From a virus (Duplodnaviria; Caudoviricetes): a DNA stretch of 50,738 nucleotides. The stretch is from the IMG/VR virus record IMGVR_UViG_3300005807_000006, positions 1-50,738 of that record, one strand, 5' to 3'. Each line of letters starts with the position of its first letter. The stretch's first letter is position 1. A program made the translations under genes and the position numbers. The notes beneath the pieces were generated by a model. That model was given only the letters and a program-made list of their open reading frames with translations. It made no database searches and was not told the origin of the DNA. Shown here in pieces: positions 17,287-38,842 of the stretch.

Positions 17287-19692
17287 ATGACAAGCGTTAA
17301 AAGTAAAAGATTAGGACAAGCTCCAGAGGAGGGGATAAAAGCCCCCGTAAAAGTTGCAACAATAGCCAATTCAACCTTAACAGGTTTGCCAATAATATCA
17401 GGATATCAATTAGTAGCCAATGACAGGGTGCTGGTCAAAAATAATACTGACCTAACTGAAAATGGAATATATCTTGCGGCAACTGGAGCTTGGTCGAGAG
17501 CTAACGACTGGAATAATGATAACGATGTTACTGGCGGTCAATTAGTCATCGATGCAAATACAGGGCTTTTATACAGAACTTCGTTTTCTGGAACTTTTTC
17601 AATTGGGATAACGATTACTAGCTTTATCGTAACTGATGCTGATACAAACTCTAGGCACAGAGACACGTTAGATATTGCAAGAGCGGATGCATCAATACAA
17701 CAGGGTACTCTTCTCCACATTAAAGAAATATCTTCTGGAGATGGTGGAGTAACTATTATTTTTGATGTAATAGCATTTGTAACTGAGCATGTGGGGAATG
17801 GGATTTTCACTCATACAGCAAATACAGCAAATAGCTTTAAAATGAGAGATAGACCTGCGCTTGAAAGCGATACTGTCGCATTAATGGCGGCAAGAACAGA
17901 TATTAAAATTGGATCGGCTATCTACGCAAAAGAACGCTCAACCGGAAACGGCGGCGGCGGACAGTGGAAAGCAATAGACGCTACAACAAGCCCGGGGAAT
18001 GCGCCGAATACTTTTGATATTGTTGCAGGCAATGCTGCGATTAGTTTTTCTTTAATTAAAACAAATGTCATAAATCCTCAAGCATACGGAGCAGCAGGTG
18101 ATGGTGTGGCAGACGATGTTTTAGTTTTACAGCGCATAGCAGACATACTCGAAGATAACGACATAATAAGAGGCAGTAAAGGCAAGAAATACAAAATGTC
18201 TATTAATTTAATAATACGAAATCAGGGTATAGCAATACAAATGCAAAGCATGGATATTAGCTTGTTAGCAAGTGCGACAAGTGCAGTATATTTAATGATA
18301 CTTGATTTAAAGGAATTTAAAGCGGCAAATTGTGATTTTGTAAGCGTAGAAGCTACAACAGCATACACTATTTTACTAGACGGCTCTCACGCAACACTAG
18401 CAACAGGTCATTACACATTCGAAGACTGTAACATAAGTCTAGCTAGACTAGCATTAATACAATTTAGACGAATAAAATACTTGAAAGTAGTCGGTTCAAC
18501 GCTAGAAGATTGCAGCAACTTTCATGGCTTAGGCTCAGAGAGAACGCAACAATTTGGGTTTGCTTCAAATGAAACTATAATTTGCGAAGATAACACTTTT
18601 AAAAATATAAAGGGCTTCGCTGGAGATATACACGGTTTAAATGTGTCGTTTAACCGAAACATAATGATAGACTGTGCATTTGGATCTAAAAACCAAATGT
18701 CGTTAGAAGAAAACGGAGCCAGTGGCGTTAACCCTATGTCAAACGTGACTAGACCTGTGATTTTTTCTTGCTTAGATAATTCTTTCGATTATGATTTTTC
18801 AAGAGCAAAATATACAACTAGTTTATTTGTGTCCCCTGAGTTTTTGTTTAGCAACACTGAGCTGTGTACGTCAGAAAGAAACAATGTTAGCGTTAAAAAT
18901 TTACCCTCAGGCGTAGACTTTGTGCTATACACCATGGGAGTTAAAGATACGTTTATTTCGAGAGATAACGTATATCTATATGACTGTCCCTTGACACTAT
19001 CGCCACCATTGCTACGCTACACAACAGCAGCTAGATTTAGCTGTATAAATGATAAGTTTACTATAAAACAGTTCAACGAGTTTTTTATTGGGTCAGATGG
19101 ACCCGCAAACCAAATCGACATGATTGACTGCGATATAGAGCTGGGAACAGGCATCGGAACAAGACCTAGCAGATACATAATTGGAGCGTTGACCGAAGCA
19201 ATTGATGTAAACTATAAGGGCAATAAGCACAAAGGACAAGTTACGGGGATTACATTTAGACCCCTAGAAATTGGGCTTGCTGTAATCACTAACTTAATTA
19301 TAACTGGCAACATGCAGGTAGATGGGACACAACCGAACACAGGTCTAGTCTCTGGCAAAGTAATCATTAATAATAACATAGGAATAAATAACAAAACAGA
19401 CATTGAAAATGGAATAACAGCTAATGCGGGAGGGGGTCAGTCTAGTGCTGTAGCTTTAACTAGCGAAGTAAACGAAGTTTCTACAGTAGCATCATCTGGG
19501 GATAGCGTAAAGCTGCTATCAGCTAGCGCTGGTCTTAAGCAGACAGTTATAAACTCAGGAGCAAACACTTGTACCGTCTATCCATTTTCAGGCGATGACT
19601 TAGGTGCGGGAGTTAATCTAGGACAATCATTAGCAGTTAATACTAGCATCACTTATTACGCATATACTGGAGTAAAGTGGGTAGCTGGATAA
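17287..19692 (+). CDS. Tailspike/tail fibre with beta-helix (putative depolymerase)
   Basis: DRVLVKN...ENGIY anchor domain; NPQAYGAAGDGVADD pectate-lyase-3-like start; N/I/C-rich repeats. Confidence 0.8.
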   Translation: MTSVKSKRLGQAPEEGIKAPVKVATIANSTLTGLPIISGYQLVANDRVLVKNNTDLTENGIYLAATGAWSRANDWNNDNDVTGGQLVIDANTGLLYRTSFSGTFSIGITITSFIVTDADTNSRHRDTLDIARADASIQQGTLLHIKEISSGDGGVTIIFDVIAFVTEHVGNGIFTHTANTANSFKMRDRPALESDTVALMAARTDIKIGSAIYAKERSTGNGGGGQWKAIDATTSPGNAPNTFDIVAGNAAISFSLIKTNVINPQAYGAAGDGVADDVLVLQRIADILEDNDIIRGSKGKKYKMSINLIIRNQGIAIQMQSMDISLLASATSAVYLMILDLKEFKAANCDFVSVEATTAYTILLDGSHATLATGHYTFEDCNISLARLALIQFRRIKYLKVVGSTLEDCSNFHGLGSERTQQFGFASNETIICEDNTFKNIKGFAGDIHGLNVSFNRNIMIDCAFGSKNQMSLEENGASGVNPMSNVTRPVIFSCLDNSFDYDFSRAKYTTSLFVSPEFLFSNTELCTSERNNVSVKNLPSGVDFVLYTMGVKDTFISRDNVYLYDCPLTLSPPLLRYTTAARFSCINDKFTIKQFNEFFIGSDGPANQIDMIDCDIELGTGIGTRPSRYIIGALTEAIDVNYKGNKHKGQVTGITFRPLEIGLAVITNLIITGNMQVDGTQPNTGLVSGKVIINNNIGINNKTDIENGITANAGGGQSSAVALTSEVNEVSTVASSGDSVKLLSASAGLKQTVINSGANTCTVYPFSGDDLGAGVNLGQSLAVNTSITYYAYTGVKWVAG

Positions 19693-19716
19693 TAGATCAA
19701 CTAAAATAATAATACC

Positions 19717-19744
19717 TTGACATAATATTTTTTAAGCGTATTAT
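19717..19744 (+). promoter_or_regulatory. Sigma70-like promoter
   Basis: TTGACA-16 nt-TATTAT upstream of RHH gene. Confidence 0.55.
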
Positions 19745-19774
19745 TATACGTATGTTAAATAAATAAGGCATTAA

Positions 19775-19999
19775 ATGAGTTATCTCGACCAACCGCCAAA
19801 AGGTTTAAAAAAAGAGATTGAGCCAAAAAAAAACCGTGGGGCACCTAAAAAGCCCGCTAATGAGCGGAGTGTAAATGTAACGATAAGTACTAGTCCTAAG
19901 TTTTTAGAGCTGTTAGACGCGCAGGGAACGGTGTTAGGTAAGACTAGGAGCGGTATGATCGAGGCAGCTTGTATATATTATTTTAAATTGGAGATTTAA
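19775..19999 (+). CDS. Ribbon-helix-helix DNA-binding protein
   Basis: VNVTISTSPKFLELLD...GKTRSGMIEAA pattern, basic RGAPKK N-terminus. Confidence 0.65.
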   Translation: MSYLDQPPKGLKKEIEPKKNRGAPKKPANERSVNVTISTSPKFLELLDAQGTVLGKTRSGMIEAACIYYFKLEI

Positions 20000-20001
20000 A
20001 G

Positions 20002-20927
20002 ATGAACGAACAACTAGCAAAATTAGCAAGAACACTTTTGAAAGAAGATCTTGCTAAGTTAACCAAAACCCACCAGACCATGTTTAAACGGATTTATTCA
20101 CGCGGAAATTTGGGTGCAGATATTAAAGATATTAAAGATATTGTAGATGCGATGCCAGATAACGATCTTGATTGGGTAATGCTGCTAGTGGAGAGGTCTT
20201 TAGATAGTTATGAGGATTAAACGATGAACGTTTATGAGATAGTAATACCGCTCAACAAGCTAAAGTCTTTAGTTGTGTACCCTAGGGGGTTTTATCAGCT
20301 TTGACATCATGAGTCAATTTCCTGCACTATGATAGTTGAAATTATCAAAGAAATTGAAGATAGTATTAATGACGAGCGTAATCACAAAAGATGTCATCAT
20401 CAACGCAGAATCGAAGATCAGCTAACTGAAGAGCTTGCTGGTGTTTCATTTTTACGAAATATTGCTAATTAAAAGGGTTAAATTATGAGTGAATACATCG
20501 GTTGCGTTATTTTAGTTTGGTTCTGGCTTGCTGCAATTTATTATTTAGACGAGAAATTTTTAGGCAAGTTTAAAACGTGGGGGGATTTAATATACCTTCC
20601 ATTCCTTATTGCCTTTTTCTTAAACGTAATAGCAAGTACATTGCTTTTATGTATGATAGTGTTTGTAGCAATTTTTATGGGCATTGGTTGGATAATTTAT
20701 TAAAGGGGAATAATATGAAAAATATTAAATATTTTGTTGCGCTATGGATTGTAGCTAGTGGGACATTTGCAAACTTAGCTATTAAAATTCAGATAGAAGA
20801 ATGCGGGTACATAAATTCAGAAGAAGCAGCTGAAATCATAAAAGACTCTTTATATTTCCCTTTTATCATCATACCTGTCATTGGAAATGAAATTAAAGAA
20901 AGCTCAAAATGTGGGGATGAGAAATGA
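20002..20927 (+). CDS. Cluster of small hypothetical ORFs (20002-20220, 20485-20703 membrane, ~20714-20927)
   Basis: Short co-oriented ORFs with RBS. Confidence 0.5.
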
Positions 20928-21303
20928 AAGCAACTGAACTAGTCAGTAAAATAGCAAGCTATATGAATGAAGAAAAAGACTGTTATGTAGTCATACATTT
21001 TAGAGTATTAATCAACCTACAGCGCGCATTAGCTGAATGCCTGCTAAAAGTTTTGGAAGCACACTTAATTAACAAAACACGGAGGATTAAGCCAATGATT
21101 TAAAGTAACGCTAGATGCGAAGAAGCTTAATTACTTAGACTAAAATAAACAAACTATAGCACAGCCATTGAAAGCAAAGACGAGTTTTTAATGTAATGAA
21201 AAATTATTAATCACGCCAACAGGTACAATAAAATGATAACGCAGGGGGAAAGCCCTTAGATCTGTAAAGTGGAGGATTAATACCTTGGAAGCTAAACTGA
21301 TCC

Positions 21304-21328
21304 AAACGCCCCTTAATTGGGGTTTTTG
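21304..21328 (+). terminator. Intrinsic terminator
   Basis: CCCC TTAATT GGGG followed by TTTTT. Confidence 0.45.
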
Positions 21329-21425
21329 GGTGAAAACTAAATGAGAATAAAGTGATACCGCTACAAGTAAAAATAATTAGTTACGATTTTGGATTTAATT
21401 TATGCAATTGGTATTAGAGGTACGT

Positions 21426-21764
21426 ATGGCACGGAATATGAGTTTTGCAATGACCACAGACCAATTTAGAGCGCGAACCAAGACGGTTACTCGCAGGTTT
21501 GGATGGTGGTTTCTTAAGCCCGGCGACGAAGTGCGCGGGGTGGAAAAGGCAATGGGCCTGCAGAAAGGCGAGAGAATTAAACCGCTTGGAATGATACGCA
21601 TTGTTTCTGTGCGACCAGAGCTGCTGAACGCAATTACAAAGGACGATGTAATTAAAGAGGGGTTTCCAAATTGGACGCCAGCGCAGTTTGTGCAAATGCT
21701 GGTAGATCACTACCGCACTGATCCGGCTGCGACGGTAAACAGGATTCAGTTTGAGTACCTATAA
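21426..21764 (+). CDS. ASCH/PUA-like domain protein
   Basis: MSFAMTTDQFRARTKTVTRRFGW...LKPGD...EGFP; GAGG RBS; stop codon lies in TAAC of first attC-like site. Confidence 0.75.
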   Translation: MARNMSFAMTTDQFRARTKTVTRRFGWWFLKPGDEVRGVEKAMGLQKGERIKPLGMIRIVSVRPELLNAITKDDVIKEGFPNWTPAQFVQMLVDHYRTDPAATVNRIQFEYL

Positions 21765-21835
21765 CGGCTTTAATAAGCTGCTGAGTGAAACGAAGTCGGT
21801 TTGATTTATTTGTTATATTATTTGAGGATGGGATT

Positions 21836-22114
21836 ATGGGTACTGGATTATTAGTGAAGGGATATTTACATAAAACCCCTATTTACGAGAAGGGTGATTG
21901 GTGTACAGAAGTTTTTATCGGTGACAGATTATTAGTTGATTCAGGTGGATTTGGCAGCGAATTCTTGGAATACGCAAAAATTTATGAAGTAATTGATGAT
22001 AATGGATTAACAAAATTAAAAAGTGAAGACGGGACGATTATAGATGAACGGCACACGAAAAATACAATGCCGTTTTTCGTGAAACTTCTACACCCTGCAC
22101 CTAACGATAGATAA
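21836..22114 (+). CDS. Cassette ORF, hypothetical
   Basis: GAGGATGG RBS, ATG 21836; bounded by GTTATAT/ATATAAC. Confidence 0.65.
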   Translation: MGTGLLVKGYLHKTPIYEKGDWCTEVFIGDRLLVDSGGFGSEFLEYAKIYEVIDDNGLTKLKSEDGTIIDERHTKNTMPFFVKLLHPAPNDR

Positions 22115-22194
22115 ATATAACATCAAGTTAAAAAGCGCGTTTTGCATCGGCTTGAATACATTGTTAGGATGAAATTAACTAAGGAGTAAGGGGT

Positions 22195-22371
22195 ATGACA
22201 GATTATTACAGCCAGTTTCACCCGAAAGAAAGGACAGGAAAAGAGTGTAAAAAAGTTAAGTGCGAGAGATATAATGATTACTTGGCGTGGAAGCTAGGGA
22301 GCAGTGCTTTAGAGTATTGTATGGCGTGTAAAAACGCTCACGTATCACAGTATAAGAGCAGCAAAAAATAA
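22195..22371 (+). CDS. Cassette ORF, 58 aa Cys-containing
   Basis: Hand-translated MTDYYSQFHPKERTGKECKKVKC...; stop inside TAAC. Confidence 0.6.
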   Translation: MTDYYSQFHPKERTGKECKKVKCERYNDYLAWKLGSSALEYCMACKNAHVSQYKSSKK

Positions 22372-22453
22372 CGTCGTTTTTAACTTGCGCCATCACCAAA
22401 CTATAAATAGAGACGCTGAGCTTTCAGCGTCAAGTTGAAAAACCTTGTTATAT
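22366..22453 (-). other. attC-like recombination site
   Basis: Arms GTTTTTAACTTGCGC / GCGTCAAGTTGAAAAAC pair with one extra G and one extra T in the right arm. Confidence 0.8.
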
Positions 22454-22475
22454 GGCAGTGAATTAAAGGAAAGAC

Positions 22476-22703
22476 ATGAACATAGACTGCTCAAAAATAG
22501 CAAACAAAAGTGACTTGCTGGTATTAGTTGGGGTGGTGATTATTATTGCTCTTCTTGGCGTGGCAGTTATGTTAACAATTTATGCTGATAACTTTATTGC
22601 TGGATTTTTTAGCGCAACAATTACTTGGAAATGGCATGGCTGGATTTACAAGCCGATAGATAGAATGCTGGATAAATTGTGGCCACCAGACGATGCCATA
22701 TAA
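22476..22703 (+). CDS. Cassette ORF, membrane protein
   Basis: Hydrophobic segment; stop inside TAAC. Confidence 0.65.
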   Translation: MNIDCSKIANKSDLLVLVGVVIIIALLGVAVMLTIYADNFIAGFFSATITWKWHGWIYKPIDRMLDKLWPPDDAI

Positions 22704-22769
22704 CGACCAAGCTCAGTTGTTGCGACTGAGCAAAGCGAAAGAGCAATCAACTGGAGTGAATTGTTATGA
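22698..22769 (-). other. attC-like recombination site
   Basis: ATATAAC gaccaa GCTCAGTTGTTGC...GCAATCAACTGGAGT gaatt GTTATGA; extra G and T in right arm. Confidence 0.85.
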
Positions 22770-22972
22770 GATTTAATGTAGGAAAATATTATAAACACAG
22801 TGGCGGCGAAATGATGCACGTGTTAGTTGCCACCAAAACAAAAGTATATGGACAAACAATGATTGCTGAATTTAATGATGGCAGCTTTAGACCTGTTGGC
22901 AATGACGAGACAAGCTCTGTTAATTGGGTGGAGTTAGACGATATTACTGAATGGGATAATTTGTTCTCATAA
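22766..22972 (+). CDS. Cassette ORF, hypothetical
   Basis: ATG overlaps GTTATG; stop inside TCATAAC; GKYYKH motif. Confidence 0.7.
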   Translation: MRFNVGKYYKHSGGEMMHVLVATKTKVYGQTMIAEFNDGSFRPVGNDETSSVNWVELDDITEWDNLFS

Positions 22973-23044
22973 CGGCTTTAATAATCCGCTAAGTGTAACG
23001 AGATCGGTTTGATTTATTGGTTATATTATTTTGGAGACAAGTAA

Positions 23045-23221
23045 ATGAGTACGTTTGAAACAAAAGAAGAGTGCCTTCCTGTTGAAAAATTTATATGGGG
23101 TTGTATAGGTTTTGACTATAGGGAATTTGCAGGTATTAAAGAATTATCTTTTTCTGATCTATTGACATTACGAAGCTTAATTGATCGTCAGGCAAACGAT
23201 TTATTTAAGAACAGCGAATAA
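23045..23221 (+). CDS. Cassette ORF, 58 aa
   Basis: Hand-translated MSTFETKEECLPVEKFIWG...; GGAG RBS. Confidence 0.6.
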   Translation: MSTFETKEECLPVEKFIWGCIGFDYREFAGIKELSFSDLLTLRSLIDRQANDLFKNSE

Positions 23222-23348
23222 ATATAATACTAAGTTAAAAAGCGCGTCTTTTTGCGCCGTCCGCGTTTATGCAATTGTTATATTTTTTTTATTCGATTAA
23301 TACGTTTTGATTTTTAAAATATATGATATTTTTATTAATAGGTGATTT

Positions 23349-23528
23349 ATGGACGGGTATACGAAAGAAGTTATTGAAACTTTAGAAAATGAATTAAAAA
23401 CCACTGATACAACAGGTGAACTATTAATGCCGATTCTTGATGAAATAATAGCGGCTAGAAGCTGTGATGATAGATCGCTATTATGCGAAAAACTATTAAT
23501 TGAAGCACGAATATTCAACAGAATATAA
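23349..23528 (+). CDS. Cassette ORF, 59 aa
   Basis: Hand-translated MDGYTKEVIETLENEL...; AGGTG RBS; stop in left end of site. Confidence 0.6.
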   Translation: MDGYTKEVIETLENELKTTDTTGELLMPILDEIIAARSCDDRSLLCEKLLIEARIFNRI

Positions 23529-23596
23529 TACTAAGTTAAAAAGCGCGTCTTTTGCGTCTTTTTGAACGAGCAGTTATAAAGTTATTGGAGAATATA

Positions 23597-23821
23597 ATGA
23601 TTGAACCTAAGGGTTTGTTAAGTGGCGAGTTTTTTGAAGAGCAAACCATAATATGCCCCGAGTGTGGTGGTTTTGGATATATAGGAGACTATGAGGCAAC
23701 AAGCGAGCCTTGCGAATTCTGTGAAGGTCAGGGAGAATACGAACAAAAAGTACCGGTTTCATGGGCTACAATCAAAGAAATATACGCAATGGCTGTTAAA
23801 CATCTTGAGGATAAATCATGA
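23597..23821 (+). CDS. DnaJ-type zinc-finger small protein
   Basis: CPECGGFG...CEFCEGQG; GGAG RBS before ATG 23597. Confidence 0.65.
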   Translation: MIEPKGLLSGEFFEEQTIICPECGGFGYIGDYEATSEPCEFCEGQGEYEQKVPVSWATIKEIYAMAVKHLEDKS

Positions 23822-23979
23822 GCATTAATCAAGATCGAGAGTCTCTTATTTTAAAAATAAAAGAGTTGATTGAATTGTATGAAAAGCGGGAAAATGATGC
23901 ACATAGACCACCCTATGAGCAAGAGGCTTATGGGGTTGTAGCATACTCTCTAAGAAAAATAATTGAGGTTAAATCATGA
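23818..23979 (+). CDS. Hypothetical 53 aa
   Basis: Hand-translated MSINQDRESLILKIKEL...; ATGA overlap with previous stop. Confidence 0.55.
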   Translation: MSINQDRESLILKIKELIELYEKRENDAHRPPYEQEAYGVVAYSLRKIIEVKS

Positions 23980-24099
23980 GCATAGGGTCAGTCAAAAATG
24001 GACTTTAGGCAGTTTAAGAAGATTTAACGAGACAAGTTTAAATAGTTAGTGTTATAATACAAATGCGGTGTGGAAGTCGCTAAAAAGAAATTGTTAGAG

Positions 24100-24189
24100 A
24101 AGGTTTAAATTTTGTGATTCTGGTGGGTTTTTCTATCTAACAGTTTCACCCCTCTTTCTAACAGGGTCACAAATTTTAAGCCTTTTTTT
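24100..24189 (+). other. Long imperfect hairpin followed by T tract
   Basis: AAGGTTTAAATTTTGTGATTCTG...CAGGGTCACAAATTTTAAGCCTT. Confidence 0.55.
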
Positions 24190-24214
24190 ATGCCTGAAAT
24201 TTACGGCTTTCACA

Positions 24215-24391
24215 GAGTTTATATAGAGAGTGAGAATTCGTAGACTGATACGATAGTTGGGCTGCTGCGAGCAAGCGAACTTTACGGACTAAGTAGTATT
24301 TTATGCCATAACGGTATCCGGAATCTTTAGCAGATATGAACAAGGCTTGCATGGTGGAGATCAGTGCCACCCTCACTCTCTATATAAACTC
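24215..24391 (+). ncRNA. Candidate structured RNA closed by 20-bp perfect stem
   Basis: GAGTTTATATAGAGAGTGAG / CTCACTCTCTATATAAACTC; 3' hairpin GGTGG-AGATCAGTG-CCACC. Confidence 0.6.
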
Positions 24392-24467
24392 AATGGTTCT
24401 TATACCAGAATTGAACCCCATTCCTCAAAAATTGAATCCAAATGCCATGTAGGCTTTAAATACAGTA

Positions 24468-24618
24468 AAGTGTTTATATGTTAGCCGGTGGCGAAATTGG
24501 CAAATGCTGATACATTTGGAAATAGCTTGTTAACAGGTATGCGGTTCGATTCCGCTGTATCAATCAGTGAAAAGTTGAATATAGGTTCGAGTCCTATCCG
24601 GCTAACATATAAACACTT
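24468..24618 (+). ncRNA. tRNA-like RNA with nested second tRNA-like domain, in 21-bp perfect stem
   Basis: D arm TGGCGAAATTGGCAAATGC, two T arms (GCGGTTCGATTCCGC, ATAGGTTCGAGTCCTAT), no CCA. Confidence 0.65.
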
Positions 24619-24822
24619 ACCAAAATTTAATTAGTAAGATCTATTTATCATTACAACATTGAGTACCGTGGATAAAGCAGGTGAAGTTGATGTGCTAACT
24701 ATCATAAGTTAGATATCGGAGCGACAACTCTTAAAACTGTTCTGCATACTGTGAGTGATAAGAATATAGATTTAACCTTGTATATCAACACAAGGTCTAG
24801 TGACCGTATTATTTAAAAAAAG

Positions 24823-27800
24823 GTGAACAAGATGCGAGTTTATAAACATAAATGGGTGCAAGTCGGCAGTGGGACAGAAAATTACACTGGAGAATGTGTA
24901 TATAGAGATAAATGTCAAGAATGTGGAGTTCTATCTTGGCGCTGGAAGGACGGTAATAGACAGATAGACTTAAAAAATAGTAATAATTGCACTATAGTTA
25001 AAAATAAGGATAAATTAAATGATCTTGAAGATGAAGCAACATGTAAGCATGGTTTTTTGGTTGGTTGTGAAAAATGTTAGAACTTATTACGCCAATGTGG
25101 AGGCCAGCTACTAAGTCAAAAAACACTCTATTAGCCGCTGGTTACTCTCAAAAGCAACTTAACGACATTGGTAAAGTGTTCGTAGAAAGAAACTGTGGCA
25201 AAGAGATTGACGGAGCATCAAGCCTATATTCTGCAATGGTGAGAAGTTCTGGGTCAGCTCACAATATTAAGCCGCCAAAAATAGACCCGCCAAAAACCGT
25301 GGAGATTAAATCAGATGAAAAAATAGAAAGCGATACAAAGCAAGCTCAGGAAGTTAAAAGCCAAACAACCAAAATGTCAAAACATGAAGCAATCGCTTGG
25401 TATGATGGCAATAGGCTAGAGTAAGCGCGGTTTAGAGAAACTAAAACAGGATATGAAAAAATGACCTATATCGAACTTGAAAAACAATATTTTAACGATA
25501 AATTTGTAAGAATATATATCGACCACATAACAACCATCGATGATGGTATTTCAGAAAACGTTAGATTTACTAGGATTCATATGGTTTGCGGTTCGTTTGT
25601 TGATGTGAAGGAAGATTTTATTGAGGTGCTAGCTAAAATCGATCTAAAAAATAAAGAAGATCAACCAAATAATTAAAGGATAATAGAATGAAAGTTGAAG
25701 CTAGCAAAGTTACAAAAATAAAAATAACAGGTGTTAATAGATTAGACCCTGTGCATGTATTCCTAGAAGACATAGAAAAAGGCAAAGGTAGGATCACAAT
25801 AACTTGCTACAGCAAAGCGTGGTCTTCGTATTGGGGTGGTATAGGAGATAAATCTATCAGTGAATTCTTTTGTTCTTGTAATGATAATTATTTAACTGAA
25901 AATCTAGCTCCTGATCTTGATAGCACTATTTACGACATCGATAAAATAAGGCTGGATGCAGAGAATAAAAATATGGATTGTTATAGGGACGACCCCTGGA
26001 ACGATTTTGAGTTCATGGTAAAAATGTACGGCAATGATCAGTATAATTGGGACGACTCTCTACCAAAAACAACCAATCACAAATATTATTATTTATGTAG
26101 AATTATCAAAGCTGTTAAGGATGGTTTGAATGATATCAATAAAGCCTTAAGTAACGAAAAACCAGCATCACAAAACTAAGAGAGAACCATAAATTTTAAG
26201 GTAGAATTAATATGAATATTAATGATAAGGAGTTTAAATTTGAAATGAGCTATAAGGACTTATTCAAGCGGGCTGTAATTAATGCAAAACCTAAAACATG
26301 TGGAAGCGCACCGAAATGGGTAGCTGTCATGGATACTTTTTCTCTAGGCTCATATTACGCAATAGAATTATGCCGAGCATTGGATTTAGATCCTTATGCG
26401 AAGTCTTTAAACACTGTTAAATGCATAACATGCAACCCATAACTTAAATAAATTATGAATCACGAAATTAAAAACATGAAATTCTCAGGATTTGGAAGCT
26501 GGAAACAATGTAGCCATTGCGGTGCGACATTTTGGGAAAAGTTGTGGCACATAGGAGGCTACAAGAGTAAATACGAGCCACCATGTCGGTTAGATCTAAG
26601 TGAAGAATGGAAAAATAACGCAGAAATAGTAGACAATTAAACATAGGATATAATTATGAGTAAATTTGATGAATCATTTAAAGAGCCTTGGATGTTTAGT
26701 AATGGACATTTAATGTTGTCAGGCAAATATACTAAAGACGAAGCTTTGTCAATATTTAAGGATTATGACGGAGATGAGCATCTAGGTTTGGATGACTTAA
26801 AAAAGGATAGGGTTAGGTTTGGATTTACTCCAAAAGACATTGAAGACTTTGAAGATCTGGATGTTTCTTGCTGGTATTCAGGGGCAAGTGGGAAAGGTTC
26901 AAAGGAAGTCTGGTATGTTGAATAACTTAAACACAGGAGATAATTAAATGAGAACGCAAACGTTACACAGTAAAATAAATAGAGCATTTGAAGTATGGAA
27001 TACAAGCTTTGACAACACTTTGTTCATCGAAATACTGCCGAGAATTAAAAAAGAATGGCGTAAATATGTTAAAGAAGACGGTGATTCAAGGTCTGGAAAT
27101 GATACATACGGTTACGAAGAGAAAGAGAGCATCAAAAATAATATGATATATATTTCAGACCGATGGAGATGTTCATTTAGACTAAAATGGTTAATTGACG
27201 GTATTGAAAATGGCAAAATATAAATAGGAGATATTAAATGATAAAAATATTTAAATACACGCTTGATAAATTAATACCTTATGTACAACCAATTGAAATG
27301 CCTATTAATGCAAAAATAATTTCAATGAAGAATCAGTGTGAAGAGATCGTATTGTGGGCAGAGGTGAACGCTGTCAATGCTTTAGAGATTAGATCTTTTG
27401 TAGTATTGGCTACTGGCGATACTAAGCTAGATGATCCTCTAAAATATCATGCAACATTGCAATTTTTAGAGGGCAATTATGTTGTACATATTTATGAACT
27501 AATAGGAGATAATTAAGTGAGTGAACGTGAAATATATTTACCCATAATAACTGACGAAATGTTTGAGATGTTTAACGAAACTTGCTTAATGGAGTGGAGT
27601 AAAGAGTTAAATAAACCTAGCTGGACTCAAATATCAGTTGAATTTTTAGCAGTTTTATTAACTAAAGAACATGGAGAATAATACAAATGAGAAAAGTAAC
27701 TATATTTGAATGGAAGGATATTAAAAAGGAGTTCGAGAAATGAGTGAATTAAAAATAAAATTTAAATCAGAAAAAGAAAAGGATGAGTTTATCAAGTGGT

Positions 27801-28246
27801 TTTTTAGTGATGCAAATATGCAAAATATGGATTTCTATTTTGGCAAAAAAACAATTGTTTACAACGGTAAAGACGAGATGAAAATAGGATGAGTAAATCA
27901 AAAATACCAAATGCAATAATACAATTTAAGTTAGATCTTAAAAATATTTACGGAAAAGATCAAACAGAACAGGTAAAAGGTGAAGCGATAGCAATTAGAT
28001 ATTGTATCCGGTATTTGGAGCGATTAAACAAAGGAGAAATAAATAATGAGTGATTTAATATTTGCTAAAACAATGATAACAACTAAACCGAAAATAGAAT
28101 ACATCCCAAAAGGCTCTATGTGCATGTCATGCTATCGTCAAAACTTAAATTGCAGTAGCTACCCTTTTTCAAAGATGCCGGTTATCTACCAATCGCTCGG
28201 TTATTTCCACGTTAGATGTACTTTTTACGAGAGATTAAATGATTGA
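24823..28246 (+). CDS. Run of small hypothetical phage genes (24823, 25074, 25461, 25688, 26212, 26455, 26656, 26948, 27238, 28046 and shorter ORFs)
   Basis: Tightly packed co-oriented ORFs with AGGA/GGAG RBS; no attC-like sites here. Confidence 0.6.
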
Positions 28247-28889
28247 ATTGATAAATATAGACTGTATGGAATATATGAAAAATTGCAAAGATAACGCGTT
28301 TGATTTGGCTATTGTTGATCCTCCATACGGAATAGGTGAGAGCGGAAAAACCAACAAATCTAGGAGTAAGCTTGCGACAGCAAAAGATTATAAGTCTTAT
28401 TGTGGAGATGATTTAAAACCGCCAGGCAAAAGTTATTTTATAGAATTAAAAAGAGTTAGCAAAAATCAAATAATATGGGGTGCAAACCACTTCATGCAAA
28501 ATATATGCTTAGGATCGAGTTGTTGGATTGTGTGGGATAAGCAAACAGGAAATTCAGATTTTGCAGATTGCGAACTAGCCTACACAAGCTTTAATACAGC
28601 AGTTAGAAAATATACGTTCCAATGGTCTGGAATGCTTCAGGGAAATATGAAAAATAAAGAATTTAGAATCCATCCGAATCAAAAGCCAGTTAACTTGTAT
28701 CAATGGTTGTTAAAATATTATGCAAAAGATGGTGATAGGATACTAGACACCCATCTAGGCTCTGCATCTAGCGCAATAGCTGCTCATTACGGCGGTTTTG
28801 ACTTTGTAGGGTGTGATCTAGATGAGTATTATTTTAAAGCTGCAAAAGAAAGGTTTAACGACCAGACCAGACAAAAGGCAATGTTTTGA
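28239..28889 (+). CDS. Orphan DNA methyltransferase (N6-A/N4-C, beta class)
   Basis: IVDPPYG catalytic motif, HPNQKP, ILDTHLGSAS SAM-binding motif. Confidence 0.9.
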   Translation: MIELINIDCMEYMKNCKDNAFDLAIVDPPYGIGESGKTNKSRSKLATAKDYKSYCGDDLKPPGKSYFIELKRVSKNQIIWGANHFMQNICLGSSCWIVWDKQTGNSDFADCELAYTSFNTAVRKYTFQWSGMLQGNMKNKEFRIHPNQKPVNLYQWLLKYYAKDGDRILDTHLGSASSAIAAHYGGFDFVGCDLDEYYFKAAKERFNDQTRQKAMF

Positions 28890-29075
28890 TAACAACTGAA
28901 GCAGAAATAAAGCACAAGAAAGCCTGCCTACGTAGACATTACGAACAAATGACATTTGGGCAGGCTAAGCGATTAATATCCGAACTAGAACCGAGACATA
29001 GAGAGACAATAAAATCTAAGCGGTTTAAGAAGCGGATAAATTTAGCGAAAGGCTATGATTTTATTTAAATAACAC

Positions 29076-29104
29076 TTGACGGGCAATGAACACAAGCGCA
29101 TACT
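29076..29104 (+). promoter_or_regulatory. Sigma70-like promoter
   Basis: TTGACG-17 nt-CATACT. Confidence 0.6.
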
Positions 29105-29132
29105 ACTGCATATCAAATAATAAGGCTTTAAA

Positions 29133-29270
29133 ATGACAAAAACCGTAAGAAGAACTTATTTAATAGAAGAAAAAGTTGAGAATAAGTTAAACTCAGAAAG
29201 TAAAAAACAAAACCGAAAAAAGTCGGCTATTGTCAACATTGCGCTAAAAAAGGAGCTTAAGATAAAATGA
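29133..29270 (+). CDS. Small ribbon-helix-helix protein (45 aa)
   Basis: Hand-translated MTKTVRRTYLIEEKVENKLNSESKKQNRKKSAIVNIALKKELKIK. Confidence 0.6.
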   Translation: MTKTVRRTYLIEEKVENKLNSESKKQNRKKSAIVNIALKKELKIK

Positions 29271-29614
29271 AAAAATTAACAAAAGCTCAGGAATACATCA
29301 AAGAAAATTTAGGCAACACTAATACATTTAATGATGTACAAGTTTTTAGTGTAAAATTTCCAGATGAGTTTTTAGAAGTTAAGGAGTACATCGAAAATAA
29401 CTGTATTGATAACTCTGTTTTTTTTGATGCAATGATGGATGAGACATGGTTGAGATACACTGTAGAAAAATGCACTGAAACAACTTTAAGATTTAATGAG
29501 TTTGTCGAGTACGAACTAGCAATAATCGAAGACATCGAAGAGCTAAATGAAATCGAGTCATCAAAAGAAACTTGTGATGTCGAAGCGTTTAAAAGATATA
29601 GGGGATTAACATGA
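29267..29614 (+). CDS. Hypothetical acidic protein
   Basis: ORF with AAGGAG RBS, ATGA overlap. Confidence 0.6.
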   Translation: MKKLTKAQEYIKENLGNTNTFNDVQVFSVKFPDEFLEVKEYIENNCIDNSVFFDAMMDETWLRYTVEKCTETTLRFNEFVEYELAIIEDIEELNEIESSKETCDVEAFKRYRGLT

Positions 29615-29784: not shown

Positions 29785-29826
29785 TGAAACTTGTGAAGCG
29801 TTTAAAAGACATAGGGAATTAAACCA

Positions 29827-30444: not shown

Positions 30445-30528
30445 CAAAAAAGAAAGGTTGGAGCTTGTTTACATTGTCGCGACTATATTTGTCTTATTAT
30501 TTTTTGTCGGATTTTTGGAGAATGGATT

Positions 30529-31548
30529 ATGAATGATTTAGTACATGTAGCACCAGCAAATACTAACCAAGTATTATCTTTGGCTCAAAAAGATTTTTCT
30601 TTAGTTTCCATTGACCAAAAAATAAAATGGGAAAAAGAATTTAATTTTGCATTACAAATATTGAGAAAAAACAAGACTCTCAACGATGTGGCTTTGGAAA
30701 ATCAACAAAGCTTAAAAGATGCAATTATTAATGTATCAGCCATCGGTATAAGCCTAAATCCAGCATTAAAACACGCTTATTTAGTGCCTAGAAAAAAGTC
30801 AGTATGTTTGGATATATCTTATATGGGCTTGTTACACTTAGCTTGCATGAGCGGATCTATTGATTGGGGTCAGGCTAAAATAGTTAGAGAAAAAGACACA
30901 TATACTAGTTTAGGTATTGATAAAGCCCCTCGGCATGAATTTCAGGCATTTGGAGATAGAGGCGGTATAGTAGGCGTTTACTGCACTGTAAAAACAAATA
31001 ACGGAGACTATCTAACTGAAGAAATGTCTATTAATGCTGTTTATGATATTAGAGATCGGTCGATGGCTTACAAATCAAGCTATGGCCCTTGGTTAACAGA
31101 TCCTGAGCAGATGATAAGGAAGACGGTAGTAAAAAGAGCGTCAAGTTATTGGCCTAAAGTAGAACGTCTTGATAATGCAATAAACATGCTTAACATCGAA
31201 AACGAGGAAGGAATAGATTTTCAAAATAACAAGCCAAAAGGAAAGAGTGGTAATTGGAAGGCTGGGGTTAATCCTAACGTGCTTCCACACAAATTAAGGG
31301 AAGTTTTTTTTAACATTAATGAGGCATTTGAAGCAGAAGACTTGCAAACCGTCCTAGAAAAATTTAAAGAGTTTGGCATAATAGAGGAGATGTCCGCAGT
31401 TTGGAAATGTTTTGCTAGTGACGAAAGATCTAAAATAAACAAATACAAAAACAGCGAAGAATATACAGAAATAACAAATTCACAAAAAGTAGAATACTTA
31501 GATCAAGATGAATTATTACATCTTTGCAAAGCTTTTAATTTTCACTAA
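30529..31548 (+). CDS. recT: RecT/Redbeta-family single-strand annealing protein
   Basis: GISLNPALKHAYLVPR, LDISYMGL, PW.TD.EQM.RKTVVKRASSYWP. Confidence 0.85.
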   Translation: MNDLVHVAPANTNQVLSLAQKDFSLVSIDQKIKWEKEFNFALQILRKNKTLNDVALENQQSLKDAIINVSAIGISLNPALKHAYLVPRKKSVCLDISYMGLLHLACMSGSIDWGQAKIVREKDTYTSLGIDKAPRHEFQAFGDRGGIVGVYCTVKTNNGDYLTEEMSINAVYDIRDRSMAYKSSYGPWLTDPEQMIRKTVVKRASSYWPKVERLDNAINMLNIENEEGIDFQNNKPKGKSGNWKAGVNPNVLPHKLREVFFNINEAFEAEDLQTVLEKFKEFGIIEEMSAVWKCFASDERSKINKYKNSEEYTEITNSQKVEYLDQDELLHLCKAFNFH

Positions 31549-31575
31549 AACAGACAGAGTAACTTTGATAAAATC

Positions 31576-32255: not shown

Positions 32256-32256
32256 C

Positions 32257-34022: not shown

Positions 34023-34291
34023 TGATTGAATTATTAGTTAGCGTAAACAAAAAGCCTGTTGATTTGGGCAATGGAATTACACGGCATAGCTCTATAAATA
34101 AATTATGTGCGATTGATAAAATCAGAATGACTTATAACGGCCACTATTACGCTCACTTAGTAAACAAAGAGAGTGACGCTCCATTCAACTCAGGAGGAGA
34201 ATGGGGGTCGTGGGTTGGTTTTTTTAAGAAAGAAAATAAGCATGTGCGACTACCTATTATCAAAATTGAAAGGCAAGAAGTAGATGTATAA
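34022..34291 (+). CDS. Hypothetical, stop in first attC-like site of array 2
   Basis: AAGGAGG RBS; TAA within GTATAAC. Confidence 0.65.
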   Translation: MIELLVSVNKKPVDLGNGITRHSSINKLCAIDKIRMTYNGHYYAHLVNKESDAPFNSGGEWGSWVGFFKKENKHVRLPIIKIERQEVDV

Positions 34292-34327
34292 CAATTAAGT
34301 TAACTTGCTTGAATGGAGCGCAGCGTA

Positions 34328-34618
34328 ATGAAAATCAAAGTTAAACGCCTTGTTATCTTTTTACATTGCTGGTTTTTCGGGCATGTGCCAGATGATAAAA
34401 ACACAGTATTTGATACAGATGAATATACCTATGGCTGGCATATGATGTGTAAGCGTTGCGGAATATTGGATATAGAACAGCACGAACTTATGACTGGCAG
34501 CAGAAGTTATAAGGTTAAGCAATTTGTGATTTTCTGGCTCTATCGTAGATGGTGTCCGGAGCCATGCAAAGACTGCGGTAGTCGATTCGGCAAGCACGAT
34601 AACTGCATACCGTTTTGA
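34328..34618 (+). CDS. Cassette ORF, Cys/His-rich (HCWFFGH, CKRC, CKDC)
   Basis: GGAG then ATG 34328 inside the site. Confidence 0.65.
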   Translation: MKIKVKRLVIFLHCWFFGHVPDDKNTVFDTDEYTYGWHMMCKRCGILDIEQHELMTGSRSYKVKQFVIFWLYRRWCPEPCKDCGSRFGKHDNCIPF

Positions 34619-34673
34619 AAGATAACGGCTTTAATAAGCAGCTAAGTGCAACGAACGACATGAAGGAATTGTT

Positions 34674-34907
34674 ATGCAAATTGAATTGATGAGGAGAACC
34701 GCAACGGCATTGATGCCAGGGCAATCCATAAAAATTTCCCGAGACAAGATGGTAACGGCGGCTGAAGGTATTCTTTACTCTCTGCTATTTTCTGTACGCA
34801 GAGTGGATATTAAGATCTTTGCGGAACAGGTGGCGCAAAACTGGGGGGTTACGATGACTGAGGACGCTATGACGGGCGAATGGACAATGTTCAAGCCGCA
34901 TGCATAA
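34674..34907 (+). CDS. Cassette ORF, hypothetical
   Basis: Begins in GTTATGC, ends in GCATAAC. Confidence 0.7.
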   Translation: MQIELMRRTATALMPGQSIKISRDKMVTAAEGILYSLLFSVRRVDIKIFAEQVAQNWGVTMTEDAMTGEWTMFKPHA

Positions 34908-34997
34908 CGCCATGCTCAGGAGCGCAAAAAGCACCCACTGAACTTTAAATTTAACTAAAAACCGCGGCGTTTTTTGTGTCGCCTGGAGCTAATTGTT

Positions 34998-35198
34998 ATG
35001 TATGAATGCACAGCAAAGCAGTACTGGAAAAAGATTTACAGGGTAATGCGCGTGGCAATACGCGAAGCAAATAAGGCCAGCATGGATGTGATGATCTACG
35101 GCACGGGCGCAGTAATGATCCCTAAAGATGGTGGCGACCCAAAACACGTCCCTCTTGCTAATTTGGACATGAATAATTTAACTGATCATAGGGAATAA
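34998..35198 (+). CDS. Cassette ORF, hypothetical
   Basis: ATG in GTTATG with GGAG 9 nt upstream; stop in TAAC. Confidence 0.65.
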   Translation: MYECTAKQYWKKIYRVMRVAIREANKASMDVMIYGTGAVMIPKDGGDPKHVPLANLDMNNLTDHRE

Positions 35199-35276
35199 CG
35201 ACCTTGAGCTAACCTGTGAGCGGTAGCGAATCCGGTTAAGTGATTGGTTATACAGATTTAATACGAGGATTATAAA

Positions 35277-35555
35277 ATGAAAATTAATTTACAGGTTAAT
35301 ATTGATGGAATGTACTGGAGTGGTGGTGCTGGTATTGAGGTGCCGGAATTATATAGGAAATGTTTTGAGCCAATGAAAACAGGTGATGAGCCGCTTGTCG
35401 CTATGGTTACTGGCGAGATTATGGAGCAAGAAGCTAATATTGTAATGAAAACAAGAAGTGATGCCGCCGAGATATTAGGGCGAGAATTAGCAGAGCTAAT
35501 AGTTCGTGAGATGAAAGCAAAAGATACGCACAATGGTTACGAGAAGGCTGTATAA
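35277..35555 (+). CDS. Cassette ORF, hypothetical
   Basis: GAGGA RBS; bounded by GTTATAC/GTATAAC. Confidence 0.7.
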   Translation: MKINLQVNIDGMYWSGGAGIEVPELYRKCFEPMKTGDEPLVAMVTGEIMEQEANIVMKTRSDAAEILGRELAELIVREMKAKDTHNGYEKAV

Positions 35556-35611
35556 CGACCTTGAATTAAAAAGCGCCGTTTTTTGGCGTCTTTTTGAATG
35601 ATTTGTTATGT
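35550..35611 (-). other. attC-like recombination site
   Basis: GTATAAC gaccttga ATTAAAAAGCGCC...GGCGTCTTTTTGAAT gattt GTTATGT; extra G and T in right arm. Confidence 0.85.
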
Positions 35612-35628: not shown

Positions 35629-35820
35629 ATGACAGAAGACAGAATTGAAAAAATACAAAAATTAAACAGCGAGATAAAAAACTTTAAGGACTGCTACTGC
35701 GGCATTGAATTGTGGGGTGGTAGAGATACTTTTGTAAGTGCCGAGGTATTGATGTATTTTTTGATCGAGAATCCACACTTCCAAGAGATCGCGGATAATA
35801 TTAATAAAATGGACACGTAA
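35629..35820 (+). CDS. Cassette ORF, hypothetical
   Basis: GGAGG RBS; stop in TAAC. Confidence 0.7.
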   Translation: MTEDRIEKIQKLNSEIKNFKDCYCGIELWGGRDTFVSAEVLMYFLIENPHFQEIADNINKMDT

Positions 35821-35892
35821 CGATTAAGTTAAAGGGCGCGGCTTTATCGCGTCCATTTTGAACGCTCTGTATAACAAAGCGAGGAGATAAAG

Positions 35893-36057
35893 ATGATTTT
35901 AAAAGATGCGTATGATGAAGGCGGAAAGCTTCTTGGTGATGAATGTGTAGATTTATCAGGATTACAGGAAGACACTAAGAAAGCGATAATGCAATTAATT
36001 TACCTTGATGAAACTGTAGATATTTATAATGACGCGCTGAATAAGAAGACTACATAA
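35893..36057 (+). CDS. Cassette ORF, 54 aa
   Basis: Hand-translated MILKDAYDEGGKLLGDECVDL...; GAGGAG RBS. Confidence 0.6.
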   Translation: MILKDAYDEGGKLLGDECVDLSGLQEDTKKAIMQLIYLDETVDIYNDALNKKTT

Positions 36058-36138
36058 TGACCATATTCAGAAGTGAACGAGTGCCAGCGAGTGAATCTGT
36101 TGGAGCTATTTGTTATATTTTTTTAAGAGGGTTTATAT

Positions 36139-36339: not shown

Positions 36340-36422
36340 ATATAATACTAAGTTAAAAAGCGCGTCTTTTGCGTCTTTTTGAATGACCGGTTATTTAATT
36401 TAAATAAATGCGAGGAAATAAA

Positions 36423-36704: not shown

Positions 36705-36814
36705 CACATAACGACATTTAATAACCTGCGGCATAAATAGCTTGCAGTAAACACGATGAGGGTTGACCGTCTGGTTGATTTTATTGTTATATTTTTTAAT
36801 TGGAGGATTTTAAA

Positions 36815-37140: not shown

Positions 37141-37380
37141 ATGAAATTTGAGCCAAATGATTTTTTTGGAACAGTACATGTACAGGTTAAACACAGCAAG
37201 TTACTTGCTAATGGAGAGCCTAACAATTTTTGGCGAAATGCACTCTATGTGTGTCAGCAAGATGATGCACATGTAGTGATTTATGCAGATGGCACAAAAG
37301 AAGTCCTAAAACAAAGAACGAAAATACGAATGACACATGACGGCTTTAATAAGCCGCTAAGTGAAACGAAGTCGGATTGA
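37141..37380 (+). CDS. Cassette ORF reading into downstream site
   Basis: GAGG RBS; C-terminus THDGFNKPLSETKSD encoded by site 37335-37394. Confidence 0.6.
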   Translation: MKFEPNDFFGTVHVQVKHSKLLANGEPNNFWRNALYVCQQDDAHVVIYADGTKEVLKQRTKIRMTHDGFNKPLSETKSD

Positions 37381-37412
37381 TTTATTGGTTATATTTTAAA
37401 TGAGGATTAATT

Positions 37413-37625: not shown

Positions 37626-37706
37626 TTGATACCTAACGTCAAGTTAAAAAGCGCGTTTAGCGTCCGATTTTGAACGCCTTTTTATGCGGGGTAAAAGGAT
37701 AAACAA

Positions 37707-38249: not shown

Positions 38250-38501
38250 ATGAACAAAGTAAATGTAGAGACGAATCCAGTTAAGCGGCATATTATGCGT
38301 AGCGATAAAGGAATATTGGATTGGCTGCAAAATGAATGCGGTGGATCGTTTAGCTGTAAGCGACAAAGAGACCCTTTTGTCGCTTCACCCACCTTTGGTA
38401 ACCTAGACGAGTGGCAGATATTTACCATTCCTTCGCAGCACGTTAAAGGCGTAAGCATAAGGGATGCTTTTAGCAATGCAATGAATAAGTGTGGCGCATA
38501 A
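38250..38501 (+). CDS. Cassette ORF starting inside the site loop
   Basis: AGGAGAGG RBS in loop; stop in GCATAAC. Confidence 0.6.
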   Translation: MNKVNVETNPVKRHIMRSDKGILDWLQNECGGSFSCKRQRDPFVASPTFGNLDEWQIFTIPSQHVKGVSIRDAFSNAMNKCGA

Positions 38502-38579
38502 CGGACATGCTCAGAAGTGAGCGAGCGACAGCGAGTGAATCTGCTGGAGCTACTGGTTATATTTTTATTGGAGAATGTT

Positions 38580-38765
38580 ATGTGTAAATATATTGAGGTT
38601 AAAAATGGTGCGCCACATCCCCGCACAAGATGGTCAAGCGAGTGCGGGTTTGATCTAGTTTTAATGCAAGGATATACACCTAATTTTGGCAAGCAAGAAG
38701 AATATGATAAAAAAATATTACCCGCTGGTGGGTGCATGAAATGTAAAGCCGAGATTGAAACATAA
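38580..38765 (+). CDS. Cassette ORF, Cys-containing
   Basis: GGAG RBS; stop in ACATAAC. Confidence 0.6.
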   Translation: MCKYIEVKNGAPHPRTRWSSECGFDLVLMQGYTPNFGKQEEYDKKILPAGGCMKCKAEIET

Positions 38766-38842
38766 CATCAAGTTAAAAAGCGCGTCTTTTGCGTCTTTTT
38801 GAACGACCGGTTATTTAATTTAAATAAATGCGAGGAAATAAA

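Follow-up and report, generated by a model that had tools for sequence, protein, structure and literature searches.

Clusters of attC sites without an integron integrase (CALINs) are defined by two or more attC sites that share a strand and are spaced by under 4 kb, with no intI nearby (Cury et al. 2016, PMC4889954). In phages such integron sites are rare, with 17 CALINs among the 10,705 genomes screened by Qi et al. (2023, PMC9892861), where attC sites of the virulent phages TJE1, PH101 and P12002L, two of them from PH101, are reported to recombine with attI1 under IntI1. The IMG/VR virus record IMGVR_UViG_3300005807_000006, a marine-type phage analysed here over its full 50,738 nucleotides (nt; hereafter the window), carries seven short repeats at 21759–23579 that alternate with small open reading frames (ORFs). 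We consider it likely that these repeats are integron-type attC sites forming the smaller of two CALINs, and that a host integrase acting in trans, together with RecT recombination, shuffles the arrays. Since phage CALINs were published in 2023, the record would be a large new example of an established kind, and it suggests that the integron cassette format serves some phages as a main organiser of their small early accessory genes.

Layout and covariation of the sites

The two ends of each site are inverted copies of each other, with a left box AYATAAC and a right box GTTATRT, and in 11 aligned sites all cells (100%) of the five end-box pairs are paired. On the + strand, the left box is followed by a spacer of approximately 5–8 nt, then a stem (3 + 6 + at least 1–3 pairs) and a variable loop; the returning arm has a T left unpaired, six pairs, a G left unpaired, three more pairs and, before GTTATRT, a spacer of 5 nt. 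The published attC end-box consensus is RYYYAAC / GTTRRRY, attC-aadA7 is described with G and T as its extrahelical bases, and the integrase crossover is placed at A|C within the AAC triplet (Nivina et al. 2016, PMC5027507). In the window, AAC is present in 15 of the 20 left boxes described below and GTT in 18 of the 20 right boxes. The sites are 55–100 nt long, of which the variable part takes up 5–50 nt, and in both alignments the right half has no gaps and shows a 3' spacer of 5 nt.

A reference attC, taken from plasmid R100 downstream of aadA1, has on its bottom strand the identical order of parts as the + strand of the window. When pairing is scored against the fixed layout, the aadA1 bottom strand reaches 12/12 pairs and its top strand 7/12, and in the window five sites reach 12/12 and three more 11/12, where the shuffle maxima are 10–11 (200 shuffles per site). 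Under the tie-break as scored, G and T are unpaired in every one of these eight sites and the 3' spacer measures 5 or 6 nt. An unpaired T and G six pairs apart are found on the + strand 3' arm of 13 of the 20 stretches (one, 36334–36396, with wrong ends), in places identical to those occupied in the aadA1 and catB3 bottom strands. Under another tie-break, several AT-rich sites permit an alternative register, and the alignment-based tests therefore weigh more than the fixed-layout score.

For those tests, eight window sites and three sites from a second viral genome (G001, see below) were aligned with MAFFT, which is blind to structure and nevertheless brings both arms into register. Pairing holds in 96.3% of cells, compared with 82.0% when partners are shuffled, with none of 500 shuffles attaining the 96.3%, and it falls to 27–50% when the partners are slid by 1–3 columns. 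Within the inner helix 94.4% of cells pair, and seven of the ten inner-stem pairs show changes on both sides, involving 27 cells. The stem six-mers are wholly different between families (AAGCYG/CGGTTT, AAAAAG/CTTTTT, CAGTTG/CAACTG and others) while the geometry remains constant. When the minus strand of the site at 22366–22453 is folded as DNA, the fold covers the entire site (z –3.0). No Rfam family is matched at gathering score.

Model matches and extent of the two arrays

A covariance model built from the 11 aligned phage sites alone (R1) was run over the whole window on both strands, with filters off and at E ≤ 10. It returns 23 matches, 20 of which fall into two arrays, all on the + strand, with seven sites in 21759–23579 and 13 in 34286–38816 (Table 1); 12 of these 20 are not among the R1 training sequences. 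The three matches outside the arrays, at 5616, 44022 and 49319, are at noise level (E 3.1–7.3). Two of the seven are weak, namely 22115–22169 (E 0.0081), which is a chimera, and 23222–23283 (E 1.4), which is degenerate. The 20 sites span approximately 6.4 kb of the 50.7-kb genome, and neighbouring sites lie 237–865 nt apart, the box-to-box distance being 237–366 nt except in two longer gaps that contain degenerate remnants.

On a control set of five class 1 integron loci (102 kb, both strands), R1 gives eight matches at E ≤ 10, all of them at cassette junctions and on the strand opposite to the cassette genes: aadA1 twice (1.2e-6), catB3 (1.4e-5), GES-5 twice (5.9e-5), aph(3')-XV (9.4e-4) and a hypothetical cassette twice (0.19). 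For aadA1, the match begins and ends exactly where the 60-nt site does. Conversely, a home-made model from eight real attC sites on four plasmids (R2), which stands in for a curated attC model of the kind used by IntegronFinder and by HattCI plus Infernal, returns 11 matches in the window at E ≤ 10, of which ten fall within the arrays, on the + strand, and have ends identical to those of the R1 matches. These ten have E ≤ 0.53, six of them E ≤ 0.015, the best being 35550–35611 (4e-8) and 22698–22769 (2.7e-7); R2 also matches two of the G001 sites. Among 100 other phage loci (1.38 Mb), R1 yields eight matches at E ≤ 1, clustered in four loci. Further small attC-type clusters are observed in uncultured phages, at 6879–8407 in G010 and at 16164–16860 and 25397–25468 in G007. 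As R1 picks out clusters in several such phages, a wider survey is feasible.

A preliminary description of the window had called the repeats attC-like, a label now supported by the attC architecture, the covariation and the reciprocal recognition by covariance models. Its two recurrent 15-mers are both where it had placed them, with shuffles expecting 0.30 and 0.40 matches, respectively: TAACGGCTTTAATAA is exact at 21762, 22970 and 34623 and has one mismatch at 37338, and AAGTTAAAAAGCGCG is exact at 22125, 23232, 23533, 36350, 37641 and 38770. Additional matches with two mismatches occur for TAACGGCTTTAATAA at 26103 (minus strand) and for AAGTTAAAAAGCGCG at 3081 (minus strand) and 35826; across IMG/VR, AAGTTAAAAAGCGCG has 67 isolated matches and no clusters. 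We could likewise reproduce that the second array uses the same site families, both main families being present in both arrays, that each interval between the seven sites of 21759–23579 holds one ORF (six single ORFs of 58–92 amino acids (aa) with ribosome-binding sites), and that the arrays are separated by 10.7 kb (23579 to 34286) free of sites, with no R1 match from 23580 to 34285.

Comparison of all intergenic gaps shows that those of 21.7–23.6 kb and 34.3–38.8 kb share one layout. They start with ATAAC, the TAA of which is usually the stop codon of the preceding gene, and near their ends carry a bipartite box, TTGA-N7-GTTAT, that occurs nine times in the window against 0.75 expected, with eight of the nine in the two arrays. 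The gaps between the arrays have neither the ATAAC start nor the bipartite box.

A six-frame search for PF00589 finds nothing in the window or in G001 and matches 14 of 14 control genomes, and a Pfam search of 88 ORFs finds no tyrosine recombinase. The record thus combines 7 + 13 sites, all on the + strand and with neighbours 237–865 nt apart, with the absence of PF00589, as in the definition of a CALIN, and because the arrays are 10.7 kb apart they count as two CALINs under the 4-kb rule. A complete integron is not seen, as no intI was found; attI and Pc were not searched for.

Table 1. Sites and neighbouring genes of the two arrays. R1 and R2, E-values of the two covariance models; pairs, fixed-layout pairing score.
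Feature	Coordinates	Strand	R1	R2	Pairs	Remarks
120-aa ORF upstream of site 1	21402..21764	+				TAA stop within site 1 left box; phrog_11705 (function unknown), E 2.2e-5; no Pfam family
Site 1, family 1, 60 nt	21759..21818	+	2.4e-12 (72.3 bits; training)	0.0012	11/12	G and T unpaired
Cassette ORF, 92 aa	21836..22114	+				No Pfam or PHROG match
Site 2, chimeric	22115..22169	+	0.0081		8/12	Left arm family 2, right arm of other type ending GTTAGGA
Cassette ORF, 58 aa	22195..22371	+				No family match
Site 3, 88 nt	22366..22453	+	0.0038 (non-training)		12/12	Long variable loop with its own hairpin
Cassette ORF, 75 aa	22476..22703	+				No family match
Site 4, 72 nt	22698..22769	+	9.6e-9	2.7e-7	12/12	
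Cassette ORF, 68 aa	22766..22972	+				
Site 5, family 1, 60 nt	22967..23026	+	5.7e-12 (training)		9/12	
Cassette ORF, 58 aa	23045..23221	+				
Site 6, degenerate	23222..23283	+	1.4		9/12	Left arm of family 2 with a replaced right arm; AAT at end of left box
Cassette ORF, 59 aa	23349..23528	+				
Site 7, family 2, 57 nt	23523..23579	+	3.4e-8 (training)		12/12	Left box ends AAT; G and T unpaired
74-aa zinc-ribbon-like ORF after last site	23597..23821	+				Weak DnaJ_CXXCXGXG match, below Pfam cut-off
RecT-family single-strand annealing protein	30529..31548	+				Between arrays; Pfam RecT E 4e-27; phrog_148 E 1.8e-64
First site, larger array	34286..34358	+	0.0011			
Chimeric site	34620..34677	+	0.069		6/12	Family-1 left arm only
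Site, 100 nt	34902..35001	+	1.8e-5	0.001	11/12	
Site	35193..35253	+	3.4e-5	4e-5		
Site	35550..35611	+	6.6e-7 (non-training)	4e-8	12/12	Best R2 match
Weak site	35815..35874	+	0.038	0.53		Degenerate right box
Site	36052..36118	+	2.5e-7			Left box ends AAT
Site, family 2	36340..36396	+	1.3e-8 (training)			
Site, 87 nt	36706..36792	+	6.6e-5		11/12	
Site, family 1	37335..37394	+	8.3e-12 (training)			Left box GAC
Degenerate site	37631..37687	+	1.3			
Site	38496..38562	+	2.2e-9 (training)	0.015		
Last site, family 2	38760..38816	+	1.3e-8 (training)		12/12	

Cassettes, possible routes of exchange and genome context

The cassette unit that is bounded by the sites measures approximately 240–370 nt and contains one small ORF, and the sites additionally act as punctuation for expression. 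In 13 of the 20 sites the stop codon of the upstream ORF occupies positions 4–6 of the left box, where the TAA sits immediately 5' of the A|C position that is cut in canonical sites. The ATG of the next ORF lies inside the right box (GTTATG) in three sites, and in two of these, at 22698 and 34902, the end of the stem together with the unpaired G forms GGAG. Site 22698–22769 contains the upstream stop, the GGAG ribosome site and the ATG of the following ORF, which begins 3 nt before the site ends. At site 37335, TAA is changed to TGA, and the upstream ORF continues into the site with its stop ending at site position 46. Those cassette ORFs that have any family match belong to phage families (phrog_14729, phrog_4276 and phrog_21598). 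On the minus strand, a 168-aa ORF at 38231–38737, an unusual length for a chance frame, spans two + strand cassette ORFs and the site at 38496–38562.

We infer from the sequence that the sites recombine, which enzyme acts on them and what the ORFs do. A host integron integrase, supplied in trans, would have built and reshuffled the arrays via the folded single + strand, cutting between A and C of the left box, such that the mobile unit would comprise a site and the gene that follows it, ending in TAA. The cassettes would be drawn from a phage pool common to unrelated phages. RecT, encoded between the arrays, offers a possible second route; indeed, on the basis of the chimeric sites and the spread of the AAT variant, homologous recombination between similar sites, via RecT or Erf, is probably a further means of shuffling.

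A number of observations weigh against assigning the repeats to attC and their movement to an integrase. At position 3, the left box has the purine A in place of the pyrimidine of the published consensus, and five of the 20 left boxes lack AAC (four AAT, one GAC). One AAT subfamily is present at three junctions across both arrays and has therefore spread despite its changed triplet. The chimeric sites at 22115, 23222 and 34620 have mismatched arms that are joined within the site and not at the box, which is contrary to the prediction for integrase crossover. Taken together, the five sites without AAC and the three chimeras indicate homologous recombination as well. Most thermodynamic folds are no more stable than those of shuffles, with z ranging from –2.7 to +0.7 for RNA (20 stretches) and from –3.2 to +0.5 for DNA (16 minus-strand stretches). 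In the control loci, R1 fails to find roughly half of the genuine attC junctions, namely those after aac(6')-Ib4 (three), VIM-1, OXA-1, OXA-10 and one aadA1. R2 recovers just two of the seven sites of the smaller array and has one match outside the arrays, at 13633–13706 (E 0.0063). Furthermore, the E-values that come from a shortened calibration are rough.

These points lend some weight to a reading in which the sites descend from attC but have become fixed as intercistronic punctuation made up of stop codon, weak terminator hairpin, ribosome site and start codon, and are spread by homologous recombination (RecT; Erf in G001), not by an integrase. Such a scenario would account for the single-strand annealing protein that both the window and G001 encode in the absence of any integrase found, for the chimeras and the 5/20 sites without AAC, and for the family-2 hairpins being flagged by a terminator scan, with stop and start codons within the boxes. 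It would also fit sites 36340 and 38760, which share 95% identity over 91 nt (36338–36428 and 38758–38848); the shared stretch extends beyond the site, takes in the ribosome site and reaches the first two codons of a pair of ORFs that are otherwise unrelated. However, compensatory changes preserve the stem, both unpaired bases and the 5-nt spacer in families whose stem sequences are unrelated, none of which is needed by punctuation or by homologous recombination. The same geometry recurs in at least five unrelated phage lineages, and the attC sites of H101/PH101, where R1 finds four such sites, are reported as IntI1 substrates (PMC9892861). We therefore regard punctuation spread by homologous recombination alone as unlikely.

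Exchange between unrelated phages is indicated by G001, a viral record of 43.9 kb (97% complete) that encodes ERF, YqaJ and SSB and has no protein in common with the window (tblastx, 1e-6). It carries family-1 and other window-type sites that are 83–86% identical over 63–70 nt, and six sites form an array on the coding strand among small ORFs unrelated to those of the window. The presence of the same families in a phage without any shared protein points to exchange that does not require sequence homology between the phages. Other searches were less productive. Comparison of the array with phages by blastn gives chance matches of approximately 30 nt within genes only, a broader right-arm pattern gives 34 stretches, about the chance expectation, of which only G001 is real, and searches for RecT in metagenome contigs give five short contigs with no array context.

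An initial interpretation was that the repeats are regulatory cassettes, each a terminator with an early promoter, comparable to the promoter–terminator modules (PeSLs) of T4-type phages, which are reported to combine sigma-70-type promoters and terminators (PMC2839356, PMC4122927), and that their likeness to attC is coincidental. PeSLs are likewise conserved short intergenic modules that flank small non-essential early genes of variable regions and have been proposed to mediate modular shuffling, as described in these papers. The nine occurrences of TTGA-N7-GTTAT could be viewed in this light, as could the T runs that follow the family-2 hairpins and the sites filling every gap between the small early genes. 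Yet sigma-70-like sites are not enriched (77 versus 73.5 expected), none lies in the conserved box of the repeats, and a 7-nt spacing matches no sigma-70 promoter. Rather, TTGA-N7-GTTAT is accounted for exactly by the place where the inner stem ends, followed by the unpaired G, three pairs, the spacer of 5 nt and the right box, classical TTGACA-type promoters occur elsewhere (19717–19744 and 29076–29104), and the phage-site and real-attC models recognise each other. Unlike PeSLs, then, the phage modules are attC-type hairpin sites with no fitting sigma-70 promoter, and terminator-like structures are limited to the family-2 hairpins. With the sigma-70 scan at chance and the layout matched to real attC, the regulatory interpretation was dropped and is now very improbable.

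Homologues of the cassette genes were also found outside such arrays. For the ORF at 36423–36704, 23 of the 24 loci with homologues have no R1 match, and the single homologue of the ORF at 21836–22114 (58% aa identity) is in a viral contig (G008) whose whole record gives no R1 match. By comparison, relatives of the 120-aa ORF upstream of site 1 adjoin attC-type matches in two phage loci (L007, 7880–8932; L009, 9084–9137) and two loci from metagenome-assembled genomes (MAGs; L280, 1346–5966; L288, 4819–4904), and the gene may itself travel with such arrays. Among 25 bacterial or MAG loci with this ORF, R1 matches are confined to the latter two (three in L280, one in L288), and no host is indicated; the contig of L008 has a right-box-like string after its copy of the ORF and no full site. 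That the arrays are passive bacterial cargo, recently captured from a chromosomal integron, is scarcely credible even though Vibrio phages with pieces of host chromosomal integrons are described (PMC9892861) and the site geometry is that of bacterial attC, given that the family-matched cassette ORFs belong to phage families, that cassette ORFs have homologues in other phages without attC sites, that the family-1 right-arm pattern has no exact match in the scanned bacterial and archaeal species genomes, and that the phage ORFs lie, relative to the site, on the strand opposite to those of resistance cassettes.

Returning to integron-type arrays, the preliminary description had seen in them two insertion hot spots, independent of each other and supplied from a single pool of cassettes. 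The second array and the shared families were confirmed, and the hot spots and the single pool are plausible, not demonstrated. In their favour is G004, the only relative with shared early genes (RecT 70% identical), which has no site by R1 and is shorter at the positions of both arrays (4.1 versus 7.1 kb and 1.6 versus 5.5 kb). So are the families found in G001 next to unrelated ORFs. The reading is limited by the absence of PF00589 matches in the window and G001, by the five sites lacking AAC and the three chimeras, and by the site-free homologues of two cassette ORFs. No close relative was found in which cassette content could be compared. Two structural relatives, G002 and G003, lack sites and have no early proteins in common with the window, and another, G005 (L186; portal 67% identical), has two sites elsewhere in its genome, at 11454–12391.

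The record is rated 98% complete. Its structural genes, for the major head protein, tail tube proteins and portal, are of podovirus type, and it also encodes a DNA methylase and the RecT-family protein. Its portal is less than 28% identical to that of any GenBank phage, leaving no close cultured phage from which the host could be inferred, and megablast of 19000–26000 against GenBank phages gives no match. Both arrays lie in a long series of small + strand ORFs at 19.7–42.6 kb. Of the two classical sigma-70-type promoters, TTGACA-16-TATTAT (19717–19744) is located just past the last structural gene and TTGACG-17-CATACT (29076–29104) in the central part of the early region. The 298-nt gap that precedes the 120-aa ORF contains, at 21308–21327, a strong terminator-like hairpin, GCCCCTTAATTGGGG, with a T run after it; the core of this hairpin, CCCCTTAATTGGGGTTTT, recurs at another position in the relative L042 (approximately 11.9 kb). 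Between the arrays, a 205-aa ORF at 29827–30444 (phrog_18326) contains ten overlapping GC-rich repeat copies at 30162–30387 with a period of approximately 12–15 nt, and the GC skew over this ORF is negative, contrary to the rest of the region. On the minus strand, about ten small ORFs at 42752–45376, none with a Pfam match above cut-off, lie between the early region and the terminase genes, where GC and AT skew are reversed.

Comparison with known integron systems

The closest described phage is Pseudoalteromonas phage H101/PH101 (NC_029094), which, like the window, has an integrase-free attC array among small ORFs of unknown function. Its four R1 sites, at 75919–77987 (29–50 bits), share the strand of the annotated genes, which is also the case in the window, and are similar to the G001 and window sites at their ends and in a loop motif, with PH101 and G001 having in common TATAAC...TTGTTAT ends and a GCGTAGCG-type loop motif. 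PH101 is otherwise distinct, being 132 kb long and encoding a tail sheath gene, whereas the window is 50.7 kb and podovirus-like, with no protein similarity noted between them; the 20 sites in two arrays of the window also contrast with the four R1 matches in one cluster of PH101. Of the other two phages with attC sites reported to recombine, R1 finds two in TJE1, on the strand opposite to the genes, and none in P12002L.

The class 1 attC sites of aadA1 and catB3 agree with the phage sites in the order of the boxes, the 3 + 6 + 3 stem, the unpaired T and G and the 5-nt spacer, and both score 12/12 in the same fixed layout. They differ in the letters of the boxes (phage ATAAC/GTTAT, resistance cassettes CTAAC/GTTAG), in site G+C content (0.32–0.51 versus 0.44–0.61) and in cassette length, 237–366 nt for the phage compared with approximately 550–860 nt for the resistance genes. 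A feature that stands out is polarity. The + (coding) strand of all 20 window sites corresponds to the bottom strand that recombines in canonical attC, whereas the equivalent strand is coding in none of the eight R1 matches to resistance cassettes. This sense polarity is shared by the window, G001 and PH101, and apparently by L007, where three sites start at the stop codons of + strand ORFs; it is opposite in TJE1 and the resistance cassettes. The relation between ORF and site strands is not discussed in section 3.4 of PMC9892861.

If real, the contrast in polarity bears on how the orientation and expression of cassettes are controlled. We speculate that, in an early region under heavy transcription, the strand not used as template is single-stranded more often, such that the coding strand recombines. 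Marine phages may, as a tentative suggestion that we hold to be rather less than probable, keep their own pool of reversed-polarity mini-cassettes that a host integrase in trans moves between unrelated phages. In such a pool the unit would be an attC site followed by one small gene, with the coding strand recombining, and the site would supply the stop of the previous gene and often the ribosome site and start of the next. A reversed-polarity cassette captured at a bacterial attI would have its gene oriented against Pc and stay silent, and the phage and bacterial pools would then be functionally separate, though sharing one enzyme.

The phage arrays are similar to bacterial CALINs and chromosomal integron arrays in that the cassettes are mostly of unknown function and the sites within an array fall into similar families. 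Since 6.6% of bacterial CALINs are reported to have more than ten sites (PMC4889954), the 13-site phage array would stand among the larger ones by that measure. Unlike bacterial CALINs, however, the phage arrays are located in a virus genome, and their ORFs have the opposite strand relation to the site.

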